Source: Chiloscyllium plagiosum (Eukaryota). From it: a stretch of DNA of 50,686 nucleotides. The notes below the pieces were generated by a model. The model did not search any database, was not told the origin of the DNA, and was given only the letters and a program-made list of their open reading frames with translations. Both the position numbers and the translations under genes were made by a program. Where the stretch lies: positions 5,426,438-5,477,123 of the forward strand of contig NC_057750.1 of assembly GCF_004010195.1 (NCBI RefSeq). The letters are read 5' to 3'. Each line of letters opens with the position of its first letter. Position 1 is the first letter of the stretch. This document shows, piece after piece, positions 33,196-47,077 of the stretch.

Positions 33196-33328
33196 TGAAA
33201 TATCTGCACGCTGGCTGGTATCCCATCATCAGGTCACTCTTTATTTACTTGTGCTCAGTACACTTGGCTGTGACCAGCCAGCTCAGAATCAGTCCCTGAA
33301 GTGAGGAGCTTTTGAATCTCCTGTTTAT
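33196..33328 (-). mobile_element. 3' half of an LTR-like element (host of the Tx1 insertion)
   Basis: Minus strand ATAAACAGGAG...TTCTGAG...GTAAATAAAGAGTGA...GATATTTCA parallels the LTR at 46948-47077 and ends in CA. Confidence 0.6.
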
Positions 33329-34126
33329 TTTTTTTTATCCCCTTCAAGGAGGAGAGTCCTTGCACGTGCACACACTCACACTGATCCAGCTCTCAAAAGG
33401 AAAACACCCGAGTGGCCAGTGACAAGCAGTGCTCTTCACAAAAAAGGGCAATGCTGTGTGATCAAACAGGGAAGGGGAGGGCAGGGACTAAATCAAAATA
33501 GAGTTGGAGGGGGAAATGATGCACTCCACTCCCTGCGGCGCCCACCTCTCCCTGAACAACTCCAGGGTGTTGGTGGGCACCGCGTGCTCCTTCTCCAAGG
33601 ACACCCGGGCCCTAACGTAACCACGGAAGAGGGGCAGGCAGTCGGCCCTAACGACCCCCTCCACGGACCGCTGCCTCGACCTGTTGATGGCCAGTTTGGC
33701 CAGGCCCAGGGGCAGACCCACGAGGAGGTCTTCAGACCTGCCCTCCCTCCTCCGTACCAGGTGCCCGAAGATCAGGAGCGTGGGACTGAAGTGCAACCAA
33801 AAGCAGAGGAGGAGGTTTTTGAGAAAATTAAAAAGAGAGTGCAAACGCCCACACCCAATATATACGTGGTCCATGGACTCCACAGAGTCACAGAACAAGC
33901 AGTTGGGCTGGGAGTCCGTGAACCACTGCAATCTGCGGTTGCAGGGGACTGCTGCGTGCAGCACCCTCCACCCCAGATCCCCGAGAGAAAGGGGGAGGAC
34001 TCCCGCGTAGATAGCCCTCCACTGGGGATCCCCACCGCCCGGTGGCAAATGGGCACGCCAAGGCGTGTCCGGACAGTGGATGAGGGAGAAGAGGTGGACA
34101 GTGTGCAGCAGCAGTCTATACAGGGC
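33329..34126 (-). mobile_element. Tx1-clade non-LTR retrotransposon, 5'-truncated (ORF2 C-terminus, 3'UTR, A-tail)
   Basis: ORF 33488-34213 encodes DLGWRVLHAAVPCNRRL...CLFCDSVESMDHVYIGC...GLAKLAI (CCHC/zf-RVT region typical of Tx1). A-rich tail; 14-bp duplication AATCTCCTGTTTAT at 33315-33328 and 34127-34140. Confidence 0.85.
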
Positions 34127-34914
34127 AATCTCCTGTTTATTTTTTTTTTCTTTATTTTTTTTCCACCACCAGGAAGAATGACACAAACCTGATCCAATTG
34201 CGGGTTTTCTCATTGAATTTAAATTCTACCAGTGGATATTGTAGGATTTGAACCTGTGTCCCCAAGAGCAGAAGCCTGTCCCCTCCCCATCTCCTCTCCT
34301 TGGATTACAAGTCCTGTGACCTTACCTCTCTCCCACCATCTTACCCACCAACCCAGTGTAAGAGGTCAGTCTGGATAATGACGAGATGTGGAAACCCTAG
34401 CTGCTGTTTATTGTCCCTGTTCCATCATGGCACTTTCCTGCCCTCTGGTCAATAGGTGGTTCAGGAATTTCCTTGTTGGGACCTGCCCAGGCCCCTCTAG
34501 TATCAGTATTGGTTTCCCCTCTTCACGCCCATCATCACTCAGTAAGGAAACATGCAAAGTAGAACTAGCTAGATCTTTCACAAGCACGGGCTGGGAATCT
34601 GATCCGGGTGCTTCCGCACATACGATTAACCTGCTGACCGTGCTACTCACGAGTCACCAGCTGGAATGTAAACTAAACATAAATCAAAGTTATACATAGA
34701 GGAAGTGAATGTGTGTAGTGCAGCAGGTCCTGGTTGTGGCTCATTCGGAAACACTCCTACATCCTAGTTGTCAGGTTCCAGGCATTTAACCCTCTCCAGG
34801 ACTTAAGCACAAACATTCCAGTGCAGAACTGAAGCAGTGCTGGTCGAAGTTTTGTCTTTCACACGAAACATTAGACAGTGGTCCTACTTCCCCTCTCAGG
34901 TGGTGGTAAAACTT

Positions 34915-35290
34915 CCTTCAAGGTGAGAGGAAAGAGATTTTAAAAAAGACATGAGGGGCAACTTTTTATGCAGAAGGTGGTTTGCATGTACAATGAACTT
35001 CCTGAGGAAGTGGCAGGTGCGTGTACAATTACAACGTTTAAAAGACATTTGGATAAGTACATGGGTAGGGAAGGTTTGGAGGGATATGGGCAGGCATAGA
35101 GTCATAGAGATGTACAGCGTGGAAACAGACCCTTCGGTCCAATGCTGACCCAATCTAGTCCCACCTGCCAGCACCGAGCCCAGATCCCTCCAAATCCTTC
35201 CTGGGCAGGTTGAACTAATCTAATTTAGGGTTATGGTTGGCATGGACTGGTTAGACCAAATGGTCTGTTTCCATGCCGTATGACTCTATG
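34915..35290 (+). mobile_element. CR1 3' fragment with a short antisense CR1 tail inside (35095-35201)
   Basis: Plus-strand CR1 3' end interrupted by CATAGAGTCATAGAGATGTACAGC..., the reverse complement of the CR1 terminus. Confidence 0.75.
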
Positions 35291-44070: not shown

Positions 44071-44689
44071 GTAAGATTCTGCTCTGAAAGGGGGAGGAGA
44101 GGAGAAGTGGGGTTTACTGGATATATATTCACCCATCAGACCAAAAACCGCAGAGAAATCCCTGGCTACAATTTCTGTCAGACTTATTCACACATTTAAA
44201 CAAAAACGTTAAATTAACCCTTGATTATTGGGTTCATGTGTGATTATATGGAGGGTTTAACAAATTCTACATATACCCTCTGGTTTTTGCCTGACTGCTT
44301 GAATTTTGATGCGCATGAATATTTTTGGTAATTTACGGACTTAATGTCAGTTAACTATTATTCAGATAGCAATTAAATCAAACTAGATTCAAATTTGATT
44401 TTCCAAAACTATGATGACAAGTGTGGGATTGTGAATGAATGATGATGTATCGAACTTTTACTAGTTTAGTTATTCAGCATAATATTCGGCCTGTGGAGAT
44501 TTAAATTGAACTAATAAATTTGGAGTTGAAAGTTAACCCTAGTCATAACTACCTTAAAGCTATCGACACTAATCTCTAGGGAAAGAAAGCTGCCATTTTA
44601 GCCAACATGTGAAGAAAAGTCTTTCTGAATAAGAGTCATATTTGAAACAGTCACATCCCATGACAGCAGCTGGGATCATTTAAAACCAA

Positions 44690-45860
44690 TTGGAAAGATG
44701 GTGCTGAGCTGCCCTTTGAACTACCACAGTCCACCTGGTATAGGAAGACCCACAATGCCATGAGGGAGGGAATTCTAGGATTTTGACCTAGTGACACTGA
44801 AGGAACAATGACATATTCCCATGTCAGGATGGTAAGTGGGTGCGATGGGAACTTGCAAAGGGTGGTGTTTCCATATATCTGCTGCCCTTGTCGTTCTTGA
44901 TGGAAGTGGTCATGGGTTTGGAAGGCGCATCTTGTAGATGTAACACACTGCTGCTCCTGAGTGTCGGGGGTGGAGGAAGTAGATGCTTGTGGATGTTGTG
45001 CCAATCAAGCGGACTGCTTTGTCCAGGATGGTATCAAGCTTCTTGAGTTCTTTGCAAGGTTTGTGAAGGTTTGTAGCTCAGGTTGAGGTTTAAGGTGTAA
45101 GTTTGCTCGCTGAGCTGTAGGTTTGATATCCAGACGTTTCATTACCTGGCTAGGTAACATCATCAGTGGTGACCTCCAAGTGAAGCGAAGCTGTTGTCTC
45201 CTGCTTTCTATTTATATCTTTCTCCTGGATGGGGTTCCTGGGGTTTGTGGTGATGTCATTTTCTGTTCAATGTCTGAGGGGTTGATAGATGGTATCTAGA
45301 TCTATGCATTTGTTTATGGCGTTGTGGTTGGAGTGCCAGGCCTCTAGGAATTCTCTGGCATGTCTTTGCTTAGCCTGTCCCAGGATAGATGTGTTGTCCC
45401 ATCGAAATGGTGTTTTTTTTTGTCCATGGTACAACCCACGGACAAAAACAACGTCATCTACAGAATTCGATGCAAGGACTGCCACAAACACTACGTAGGA
45501 CAAACAGGAAGAAAGTTAGCCACCAGGATACACAAACACCAGCTAGNNNNNNNNNNNNNNNNNNNNNNNNNNNNNNNNNNNNNNNNNNNNNNNNNAGCTT
45601 CGCTTCACTTGGAGGTCGCCACTGATGATGTTACCTAGCCAGGTAATGAAACGTCTGGATATCAAACCTACAGCTCAGCGAGCAAACCTACACCCTAAAG
45701 CTTCTTGAGTAGTGTTGGAGCTGCCCCCATCCAGGCAAGTGGAGAGTATTCCATCACACCCCTGATTTAGGGAGTGAGCAAGTTATTTGCTGCAGGATTC
45801 CTAGCCTCTCACCTGCCCTTGCAGCCACTATACTTATATGGCTAGTCCAGTTCAGGTTAA
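44690..45860 (-). mobile_element. L2/CR1-group LINE 3' remnant (host of the Penelope insertion)
   Basis: Minus strand VMEYSPLAWMGAAPTLLKKL near 45700-45760. The 3' sequence recurs elsewhere (e.g. 10370-10630, 30230-30500, 47090-47540). Confidence 0.6.
45049..45697. mobile_element. Penelope-like element remnant: GIY-YIG endonuclease fragments in inverted arrangement, hammerhead motif
   Basis: Plus strand NVIYRIRCKDCHKHYVGQTGRKLATRIHKH (GIY-YIG); minus strand WDNTSILGQAKQRHAREFLEAWHS. Inverted ends about 45094-45192 and 45596-45697. CTGATGA..GAAAC at 45622-45652. 13-bp TSD AAGCTTCTTGAGT at 45036-45048 and 45698-45710. Contains N gap. Confidence 0.85.
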
Positions 45861-46680
45861 CTTTTCATCCAACAGATCACATCCCTGATAGTGGTTGCTC
45901 TGGGCATGTTGGGCTCAATTGAGTGTTGGGCTTGGATCTCTGGAGTGGGACTTGAACCCACAACCACCTGACTCAGGAGAGGCCCACTGAGCCTGGGCTG
46001 CATTATTAAAACAGACATTGTGAGTACATGTGTTGGTCACGATTAGAAGTTAAGATCAAGATGGGTTGACAGAAATAAGCCTGGGGCTGTGTAGAATTCA
46101 ACACACACAGCTAAACCATTCTGAGAGACGAGGGAAGTGGACTGAAGGAGTTGTAGGTGACTGATTTGAAATCAAGTCACCCAAAGTTAGTTTACTGGTT
46201 CAGTGCATTCCAAGGTAAAGATGAAATGTTTTCTTTGCTGTGTTCATCTTCCCTACAAACCTGCACCTCCTCCTCTGTACCCAGGTGAGAAGACATTCAT
46301 CCTATGAGTACCATTCATTCTCCACACTGCCCTCATCCTCCCTAGGGACATAGGAACAGGAATAAGCTATTCAGCCCCTTCAGCCTATTCTGATATTCAG
46401 TGAAATCATCCTAACTCCACACACCTGCCTTAGGCCCACGTCTCATAATATCTTTGATTAACAAAAAATTATCTATTTCAGATGTAAAATTATCTGATTT
46501 AGCATCACTCTAATTTGTGGGAATGAGTTCCAAATATCTACCACCCGTTGTGTGTAGAATTGCTTCCTAACATCTCTCCTGAACTAGCCCTAAGAATCTC
46601 CAATCAATGGAAATAGTTCATCTTTATCTACCCTGTCTTTACCCAGTGTGTTATAGCTGAACTTTGCCCTTCCTTATTCT

Positions 46681-47077
46681 TGTAGTGATTATAATGAGGT
46701 CAGCAGCTGGATGTCATAGAATATGAGTTCCCTGATTGGGGATGTTAACCTGGTCCAATCAGGGAACCCTGGCTGACAGATATAAACAGGAGTGTCTGGG
46801 GTGGAGGCTGCTGCACACAGCAGTCCCCTGCAACCGCAGGTTGCGGTAAAAAAAAAGAAAAAAAAAAAAAAATAAATAAACTGCCAGGCCCTTTGATGTG
46901 AAGGGCAGTGTTTGTCACTGACCACCCGGGTTAAAAAAAAACAAAAAAAACAGGAGTGTCAGAGGTTCTTTTCACTGTGAGAGCTGGTTCTGAGGGAGCT
47001 GGGTAAGTGTCAAGGACTCTTCCTGTGTAAATAAAGTGTGATGATGACAGGACACAGGCTTCTGTGAAGTTATTTCA
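46681..47077 (+). mobile_element. Solo LTR-like element interrupted by Tx1 fragments
   Basis: TG...CA ends, flanks ATTCT/ATTCC (near 5-bp TSD), CCAAT boxes, TATAAA 46781-46786, AATAAA near 47030. Confidence 0.7.
46797..46947 (+). mobile_element. Short Tx1-derived insertion (ORF2 piece + A-tract, 3'UTR piece + A-tract)
   Basis: 46797-46840 matches the reverse complement of about 33933-33975; 46888-46930 matches the Tx1 3'UTR near 33407-33450. 13-bp TSD AAACAGGAGTGTC at 46784-46796 and 46948-46960. Confidence 0.8.

Follow-up and report, generated by a model that had tools for sequence, protein, structure and literature searches.

A Tx1-like LINE of Chiloscyllium plagiosum that prefers a TATA-proximal site in a Gypsy LTR and carries an LTR-derived 5' head

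The window analyzed here, a stretch of 50,686 nucleotides from Chiloscyllium plagiosum, holds two LINE inserts on opposite strands, each next to part of a long terminal repeat (LTR), and raises the question of whether this LINE aims at the LTR promoter and is transcribed from it. A preliminary description of the DNA had proposed exactly that. The two pairs of target-site duplications (TSDs) that it reported were exact, at 14 bp on the minus strand and 13 bp on the plus strand, and the window contained the 9-mer of the TSD at these four positions and at 12807 but nowhere else. The inserts were related as described, with ORF2/3'UTR sequence in common (92% over 53 nt and 84% over 44 nt), and the LTR 3' halves of the two loci were homologous (68% over 145 nt). 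The two loci, A (33196-34178) and B (46681-47077), were resolved into the following features.

33196-33314, minus: LTR 3' half, Gypsy, divergent subfamily; AATAAA at 33240-33245, terminus TATTTCA
33315-33328, minus: copy A 3' TSD, 14 bp
33329-33336, minus: copy A poly(A) tail
33339-33397, minus: piece of the LINE's LTR-derived 5' head joined to a truncated 3'UTR ("fused" head type)
33398-34126, minus: copy A, a 5'-truncated Tx1-like LINE; ORF2 C-terminus and start of the 3'UTR
34127-34140, minus: copy A 5' TSD, 14 bp
34141-34178, minus: remnant of a further unit of this LINE; about 16-20 nt of 3'UTR and poly(A)
46681-46783, plus: solo Gypsy LTR 5' half; TG start, ATTGG at 46735, CCAAT at 46755, TATAAA at 46781-46786
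46784-46796, plus: copy B 5' TSD, 13 bp, overlapping the final three bases of TATAAA
46797-46888, plus: copy B piece 1; about 50 nt of ORF2, poly(A) at 46848-46876, TSD-like inner junction at 46877-46888
46889-46947, plus: copy B piece 2; about 44 nt of 3'UTR and poly(A)
46948-46960, plus: copy B 3' TSD
46961-47077, plus: locus B LTR 3' half; 13-nt spacer, initiator-like site near 46972, AATAAA at 47030, terminus TTATTTCA

At locus A, the LTR 3' half was 75-83% identical to LTR positions 172-240 in seven of 10 natural copies. The 5' half is missing; a comparison of the 10 natural copies with the 3 kb upstream of copy A did not find it (best E 0.085). Copy A maps to positions 6300-7019 of the LINE reference, with its ORF2 stop near 33488, a zf-RVT match just below the curated cut-off (E 6e-6) and an ORF2 C-terminus 46% identical over 205 aa to Xenopus Tx1 ORF2. 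It does not lie inside a whole LTR: its 5' TSD is preceded by 3'UTR and poly(A) of its own family, which makes it a member of a stack. The LTR-like end of copy A was not a piece of flanking LTR but proved to be LINE head, 91% identical at 33339-33397 to the head junction of the full-length locus L107. This fused junction type, which is without the spacer and the initiator part, was found at 35 of 67 head loci, and we take the piece in copy A to have been brought along from a tandem copy lying downstream. Since the last ~59 nt of copy A are head, the "3'UTR" probe suggested earlier (33340-33490) is partly LTR-like.

At locus B the position of TATAAA means that the TSD starts inside it, as had been described. 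The insert was previously taken as single but consisted of two poly(A)-tailed pieces, one of ORF2 (reference 6451-6503, 94%) and one of 3'UTR (reference 6976-7015, 90%). With the own-family remnant beside copy A, this indicates at least two events per locus. The 5-bp flanks of LTR B agree at four of five positions, and it is the first ~65 nt of its 3' half, from 46961 onward, that the LINE head copies.

Judged by its domains and protein matches, the element is a Tx1-like LINE of about 6.5-7.2 kb with two ORFs. The full-length copies showed the order Exo_endo_phos (E 3e-5 to 2e-4), RVT_1 (E 4e-19) and zf-RVT (E 4e-5), the endonuclease and zinc-finger matches lying slightly under the curated cut-offs. 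An ORF2 N-terminal query matched Xenopus Tx1 over its whole length (43% identity, E 1e-100), so that the Tx1 affinity suggested at the outset was borne out at 43-46%; among 18 ORF2 matches only Xenopus Tx1 has a family name, the other close ones being unnamed turtle, sturgeon and shark proteins. The upstream reading frame has a visible CCHC motif (zf-CCHC reached only E 0.086) and was frameshifted in every copy seen, and no intact ORF2 was present in the 19 long loci scanned. Copies of the LINE show a poly(A) tail, 5' truncation and a TSD. The 5'UTR of about 600 nt could hold a promoter of the LINE's own.

The target is, by its structure, an abundant Gypsy LTR of about 235 bp. In four of six long loci (L116, L118, L120 and L121) paired TG..CA LTRs enclosed a shared internal region, with PBS-like and purine-rich flanks as judged by eye. 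A 5-bp TSD agreeing at four or more of five positions was seen in three of 13 scored LTRs, several others being ends of longer elements. The pol order could be followed in remnants only, with RVT_1 then RT_RNaseH in L120 and, in L119, a weak rve_3 match (E 6e-4) a short distance ahead of the 3' LTR.

How often the LINE ends at this site was counted over its exact 3' ends. AAACAGGA followed 816 of 4809 exact LINE 3' ends as against 6 for a shuffled control of the same composition (136-fold), and the exact-motif share, 17%, is a lower bound; the remaining 83% were without the exact motif. Exact junctions of poly(A) and site numbered 354 and exact LTR TATA sites 988, with reversed controls giving 0. 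It is scarcely credible that there is no targeting, with the LTR site a hot spot only by being A-rich and abundant, or with the motif belonging to the LINE: the absence of exact AAACAGGA within 32 nt of 83% of exact termini could be cited for the hot spot, but the excess over the control largely refutes it, and the motif is present in empty LTRs while the TSDs carry each locus's own variants. The same 83% rule out AAACAGGAG as the element's 3' terminus.

Within 3.3-kb loci, an LTR half in the same orientation was found at 15 of 29 sampled copies; Kojima (2015) speaks of target specificity when more than 20% of flanks fall in one repeat type (PMC4494074), a share that this LINE exceeds. Wherever an LTR half flanked a copy, the insertion was in the LTR's own orientation, with TSDs of 13-17 bp at the LTR site. 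Looked at from the LTR, an insert was present at the site in 7 of 29 and 2 of 30 LTRs in two samples. About eight of the 29 sampled copies were off target, with degenerate TAA(A/C)RG-like TSDs (a count by our own reading), which departs from a strict R2-like specificity. Targeting is thus a strong preference and not strict: recurrent insertion at the TATA-proximal LTR site held up, while the term "site-specific" overstated it. The endonuclease may favour a short purine-rich site, of which the TATA-proximal sequence of the Gypsy LTR would be the best match. Its hairpin loop, which is linked to specificity, has eight residues in 15 reads of this LINE family and 11 in Tx1L.

Copies with an intact 5' end begin with a head of about 65 nt that is homologous to LTR sequence immediately past the target and ends before the LTR AATAAA (positions 173-190). 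It was reached by 19 of 29 ORF1-bearing copies, whole in 13 and fused in six. The 13 whole heads aligned with natural LTRs from position ~101-111 to 160-179 at 83-94% identity, apart from one that aligned from position 84 and abuts an LTR 5' half; scores were 61-121 against shuffle maxima of 24-33. None of the 13 whole-head copies had an AATAAA between head and ORF1. A TG expansion occurred in 47 of 67 heads and 0 of 34 empty LTRs, and heads were also present at non-LTR sites (L202 and L245); the head is therefore heritable. Nor is every head just a long TSD: variants specific to the element occur in the distal part, which also moves to non-LTR sites. These alignments showed the head to be, at the level of sequence, a heritable copy of the ~65 nt downstream of the target in the LTR.

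Such a head could also be a passive relic of one old capture, in which an ancestor inserted just before the LTR AATAAA was transcribed from the LTR once, in an ordinary target-preferring Tx1 element with its own internal promoter, the TATA site being simply the best match to the endonuclease motif. We regard this as rather unlikely, though several observations fit it: off-target TSDs have only the loose TAA(A/C)RG-like core in common, half of the heads are fused and without the initiator part, the specificity-linked loop differs in length from that of Tx1L, and few heads adjoin an LTR 5' half. Only one of the 13 whole heads does so, the other 12 coming after another unit's poly(A), and the exact pattern of LTR 5' half plus head was found in two places only, one of them a clear head. 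Against a relic, all 13 whole heads start in register with the target site and end just before the poly(A) signal; such agreement with the insertion site is not expected from a random capture. A relic also leaves unexplained both the shared 5' ends described below and the spacers that match the target.

In six of 14 scored heads (two of 16 cases were unscored), at least 12 of the 13 spacer positions agreed with the 3' flank of the same locus. Four of these six carry variants that were present in 0-1 of 48 empty LTRs, the other two being uninformative; there was one clear mismatch (L103), and seven of the 14 were without a partner flank. One spacer variant was common to two loci, L220 and L230, and the L245 head begins about 8 nt before the predicted initiator; some RNAs therefore contained the spacer, and so early a start rules out L245 as proof that the RNA begins at the initiator. 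Several loci (L100, L108, L183, L202 and L255) have poly(A)-tailed 3' transductions, made up of LTR sequence or of the head that follows, which indicate that donors sat at target sites.

The LINE builds head-to-tail stacks, and 31 of 74 adjacent pairs had the same 5' end as against 1.7 expected. Microhomology to a common TSD was ruled out as the cause, since different loci with an identical TSD shared the 5' end in only four of 305 cases; so was a common truncation zone, with 21 of 56 pairs still sharing once the zone was excluded against a background of 1.5%. Rare variants were common to same-start neighbours in 15 of 52 cases in the first 60 nt and in nine of 137 beyond (P 1e-4). When edges were left out and each locus contributed one pair, the figures were 8/25 and 7/81 (P 0.007); with all pairs retained and edges still left out, the comparison with different-start neighbours reached only P 0.07. 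In the tandem full-length pair L097, two aligned blocks in the first ~550 nt were 94-96% identical, against at most 86% for other copies, and ORF1 was at background identity (87%). Statistically, then, a unit stacked before a resident copy tends to start at the resident's start and shares rare variants with it mainly in the first ~100 nt.

Even with real targeting, the common 5' ends and the matches of head to flank could stem from later changes in the DNA, by unequal exchange or gene conversion among tandem units, or from stack RNA re-inserting at its own locus, an account that we hold to be improbable. Eight of the 31 same-start pairs were in the top 5% of identity relative to other loci, some (L065, L129 and L135) agreed at every diagnostic site as a duplication would give, and gene conversion could yield the L097 5' block. 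However, the body identity of same-start pairs (92.5%, background 91.2%) equals that of different-start neighbours (92.3%, background 90.9%), nine of 40 of which are also in the top 5%. In 18 of the 31 same-start pairs the 3' ends differ by more than 15 nt, several having different transduced tails, and the sharing of rare variants, ~20% over the first 100 nt, is down to 2-3% farther along. The shared 5' ends and near-end variants suggest, from these sequence patterns, that 5' joining is templated by the downstream target DNA.

On balance we consider it probable, with limited confidence, that this is a Tx1-like LINE that prefers the TATA site, carries a head copied from the LTR, joins its 5' end on a target template and uses the Gypsy promoter. 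After first-strand synthesis, the cDNA would pair with a homologous stretch of the top strand on the downstream side of the nick, and the 5' junction would be completed from the target. With a full-length RNA, such joining would restore TATA, spacer and initiator before the LINE, without the LTR's AATAAA, and these copies, along with read-through of stacks, would be transcribed from the Gypsy LTR promoter. More tentatively, the LINE might parasitise the LTR promoter by mimicry: it would cut at the TATA box, carry the LTR leader minus its poly(A) signal as head, rebuild a functional TATA-initiator promoter of its own at each full-length insertion by pairing of the head with downstream DNA and copy the resident's 5' end into new stacked insertions. 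The earlier idea that the LINE comes under the LTR promoter thus gains structural support from the LTR-derived head, promoter use itself being inferred, and the anatomy makes it plausible that insertion disables the host LTR.

If true, APE LINEs would have a way of joining their 5' ends by means of downstream homology; 5' joining and second-strand priming of APE-type LINEs are described as still poorly understood (PMC6895275). The stacks offer, in large number, natural examples of a downstream target homologous to the incoming cDNA, and they bear a signature of target-templated joining that can be tested. Should the head also restore the promoter, that would account for the evolution of a LINE that targets the TATA box of another transposon, and would make a clear-cut instance of a transposon exploiting the promoter of another.

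Taken by itself, the LTR targeting adds a new case to a habit already known. The crocodilian elements Tx1-8_Crp and Tx1-4_AMi are reported to prefer specific LTR retrotransposons (Kojima 2015, PMC4494074), so the kind of target is not new; the main text gives no position within the LTR elements and no TATA site. That paper raises transcription from flanking target sequence for SINEU-2B, and the captured heads in it derive from U1/U2 snRNA or upstream flank, whereas the shark LINE head is downstream target (PMC4494074). Tx1L of Xenopus laevis (UniRef YTX2, P0006) has the same APE-RT-zinc finger order, with the ORF2 identities given above, and likewise inserts in another transposon, the DNA transposon Tx1D (PMC1950540, PMC6719617). 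The shark LINE differs in its target, a Gypsy LTR promoter, in a specificity that looks looser, in its shorter loop and in its target-derived head, a feature that the passages on Tx1L in those two papers do not mention.

The R1 element of Drosophila (Stage and Eickbush 2009, PMC2718515) is also an APE LINE with tandem arrays at a regenerated TSD, off-target copies, a 14-bp TSD and downstream target sequence carried at its 3' end, and its cDNA anneals to the target at the 5' junction. In R1 this annealing uses upstream target sequence and follows top-strand cleavage on the upstream side, in contrast to the downstream homology of the shark LINE, and it is stated there to be impossible with downstream cleavage (PMC2718515). 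R2 resembles the shark LINE in relying on the target locus for transcription, and target sequence kept at its RNA 5' end is thought to permit strand invasion at the 5' junction; it differs in its restriction-like endonuclease, rDNA target, upstream homology and ribozyme processing (PMC6895275). The literature covered, with most subscription journals and Repbase/Dfam outside its scope, held no account of this LINE family, of a TATA-site target or of a downstream-target head, which is weak evidence; the relevant parts of PMC4640811 and PMC8869645 held no precedent.

A second poly(A)-tailed family sits at the same LTR site; in L039 and L055 it had no match to Tx1 ORF2, and it is therefore not called Tx1. 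Most of the sampled targets were solo LTRs or LTRs of degraded elements.

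We compared the two insertion sites of the Tx1-like LINE in the window, copy A (33398..34126, minus strand) and copy B (46797..46947, plus strand), with the preliminary description. Both claimed pairs of target site duplications (TSDs; 33315-33328/34127-34140 and 46784-46796/46948-46960) were exact by sequence comparison within the window. The proposed overlap with a TATA box also held for LTR B, the Gypsy LTR (46681-47077) split by copy B, where the TSD begins within TATAAA (46781-46786), downstream of one inverted and one direct CCAAT. Both inserts had been placed beside the TATA region of related LTRs; LTR B has both its halves, but copy A had no LTR 5' half (10 natural LTR copies gave no match in the 3 kb upstream). 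Upstream of copy A lay poly(A) and part of the 3'UTR of another unit, that is, another LINE piece with its own poly(A). The end of copy A had been read as 3'UTR, but its final ~59 nt were the LINE's own 5' head, an LTR-like sequence of ~65 nt, and it terminated in a fused-type junction, in which a 3'UTR fragment is joined to distal head. Copy B, taken earlier for one insert, consisted of two pieces, each poly(A)-tailed. The insertions as observed are real.

Searching the 3.56-Gb genome, we found full-length copies of ~6.5-7.2 kb with the following layout, 5' to 3':
head
repetitive 5'UTR
ORF1, with a weak zinc knuckle match
ORF2, with APE, RT and zf-RVT domains
short 3'UTR
poly(A)
The domains of ORF2, and its identity to Xenopus Tx1 (43% across an N-terminal 413-aa query; 46% over 205 C-terminal residues for copy A), agreed with the suggested Tx1 affinity, which is probable; the protein match of highest identity was from Heterodontus francisci (62%). 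No intact ORF2 was detected among 19 long loci scanned. Among the best 40 3' matches, all except copy A itself were 95-96% identical to copy A. The endonuclease hairpin loop preceding the conserved SRID motif had 8 residues in 15 of 15 reads from full-length copies, compared with 11 in Xenopus Tx1L, and may be related to looser specificity.

The target was a ~235-bp TG..CA repeat, paired about a common internal region in four of six long loci. Internal remnants carried RT, then RNase H, with a weak integrase match near the 3' LTR, indicating Gypsy order. A 21-mer across the TATA site had 988 exact genomic copies. Following the initiator consensus and TATA-initiator spacing, we labelled as initiator-like the LTR sequence TCACTC, whose A lies 29 nt past the first T of TATAAA. 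AAACAGGA occurred within 32 nt after 816 of 4809 exact LINE 3' termini, compared with 6 for a same-composition control; this share (17%) is a minimum, since termini with a longer tail or an inexact match went uncounted. By the same count, AAACAGGA is not the LINE's own end. Among the 29 other copies closest in sequence to copy A, 15 had an LTR half in the LINE's orientation within a 3.3-kb locus, ~8 (judged by reading the loci) were single insertions at other places, and 6, being stacks (head-to-tail units) or gapped loci, were placed in neither class. TSD calls at the ~8 off-LTR insertions were 14-19 bp, with just a loose TAA(A/C)RG-like core in common. These counts indicated that the site specificity first proposed is a strong preference for the LTR TATA and not R2-like specificity. 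Targeting of the LTR site by the LINE is well supported.

An insert lay at the target site in 7 of the 29 LTRs that best matched LTR B and in 2 of 30 taken first by position. The seven occupied LTRs contained Tx1-like LINE (four), a second poly(A)-tailed family (three, one locus holding both families) and an unassigned piece (one). A stack within a single LTR can exceed 5 kb, as at L065. The second family had a distinct 3' end and TSDs of the same kind at the same LTR site (L039, L055, L045), with no Tx1 ORF2 match in L039 or L055; similar ends were seen at L010, L092 and L215. Non-LTR insertions at L017, L025 and the last flank of L216 fell between the LTRs, in internal sequence of a related Gypsy element, and the off-target copy L023 directly followed a CCAATCAGGGA motif accompanied by an AT-rich site, a sequence resembling another promoter-like repeat.

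With ORF1 as query we collected 29 other LINE copies, of which 19 reached a conserved 5'UTR anchor and 10 (truncated, gapped or different) did not. Thirteen of the 19 had, ahead of the anchor, a sequence that matched natural LTRs at 83-94%, far above shuffles, from the target site (LTR position ~101-111) to position 160-179, halting before the LTR AATAAA (173-190); the other six were fused. AATAAA was absent between head and ORF1 in all 13 whole-head copies. The head/5'UTR junction had 256 exact genomic matches; the 67 examined comprised 31 whole, 35 fused and 1 truncated, many being short 3' transductions rather than full-length copies. A TG expansion was present in 47 of the 67 heads and in none of the 34 empty LTRs, out of 48, that could be scored, and heads also occurred at non-LTR sites, indicating that the distal head passes on with the LINE. 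An LTR origin of the head is well supported. L193 and L236, which lie on different contigs, had in common a composite made of head, poly(A), site and a second head, and so did L198 and L244, pointing to stack read-through RNAs mobilised as a single unit.

An RNA begun at the LTR initiator would lack the 13-nt spacer that follows the TSD; most whole heads nonetheless retain it. Both ends were available at 16 head loci, 14 of which were scored. From the alignments, the spacer and the 3' flank of the same locus agreed at ≥12 of 13 positions in six; four of these had spacer variants matched in 0-1 of 48 empty LTRs, and two were near the common type. L103 was the sole locus where the TSD agreed and the spacer differed, and seven had no partner flank. 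Neighbouring units also shared 5' ends: in stack loci drawn from motif and similarity searches rather than randomly, 31 of 74 adjacent unit pairs (from 21 and 36 loci, respectively) agreed within 4 nt (1.7 expected), compared with 4 of 305 pairs of units that have the canonical TSD in common but lie at different loci. The 3' ends were >15 nt apart in 18 of the 31, and bodies of same-start pairs (92.5% identity; background 91.2%) resembled each other no more than bodies of different-start neighbours did (92.3%; background 90.9%). In same-start pairs, the upstream unit repeated rare non-CpG variants seen in its downstream neighbour at 15/52 in the first 60 nt and 9/137 beyond; in different-start pairs the figures were 4/52 and 7/132. 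With edges dropped, the same-start count was 10/44, giving P 0.008 against 9/137 beyond but only P 0.07 when set against different-start neighbours; when each locus also contributed a single pair, both contrasts gave P ~0.007-0.008. In the tandem full-length pair at L097, two aligned blocks in the first ~550 nt were 94-96% identical (other copies ≤86%), with ORF1 identity at background level. Some pairs did not differ at any diagnostic site, and part of the shared 5' ends may accordingly be due to duplication or conversion.

Beyond the observed preference, TSDs, orientation, stacks, head homology with its end point, shared 5' ends and 3' transductions from donors located at target sites, we infer that a bottom-strand nick inside the TATA box would lead to TPRT, that the cDNA would anneal to the homologous stretch of top strand lying downstream of the nick, and that the 5' end of the insert would be completed from the target. 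The LINE would be transcribed by the LTR promoter, directly or through stack read-through. Since the head is in register with the LTR target, a full-length copy there has CCAAT, TATA, spacer and initiator before ORF1, without a poly(A) signal. Against dependence on this promoter, 12 of 13 whole heads came after another unit, the fused type made up half of the heads, and some RNAs included the spacer; the LINE 5'UTR may also hold an internal promoter. On balance we lean slightly towards the whole explanation (targeting, head, templated 5' joining and LTR-promoter use), in which the uncertainty lies with templated joining and promoter use.

LTR targeting adds one more case to a habit already known for Tx1 elements: Tx1L inserts in Tx1D (PMC1950540, PMC6719617), and crocodilian Tx1-8_Crp and Tx1-4_AMi favour LTR retrotransposons (PMC4494074). 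Drosophila R1 forms tandem arrays and has TSDs of 14 bp, and its cDNA, unlike in the pairing proposed here, anneals solely to upstream target (PMC2718515); R2 makes use of retained upstream target sequence (PMC6895275). Our literature search (Repbase and Dfam lay outside it) found nothing on this LINE family or a downstream-target head. The novelty lies in the target-mimicking head and the 5' ends that appear to be neighbour-templated, which deserve specialist attention.

The window also holds a connexin gene (48426-49313, plus strand; Pfam E 4e-81), which shares the strand of LTR B and begins ~1.3 kb downstream of it. Exon-like frames at 5144-5671, 25449-25964 and 31964-32332 (minus strand) had motifs containing DSG and, by Pfam Ank, an ankyrin repeat, which we take to suggest IkB-like genes. 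The LTR 3' half beside copy A shares the orientation of the 31964-32332 frame and lies ~0.9 kb upstream of it.
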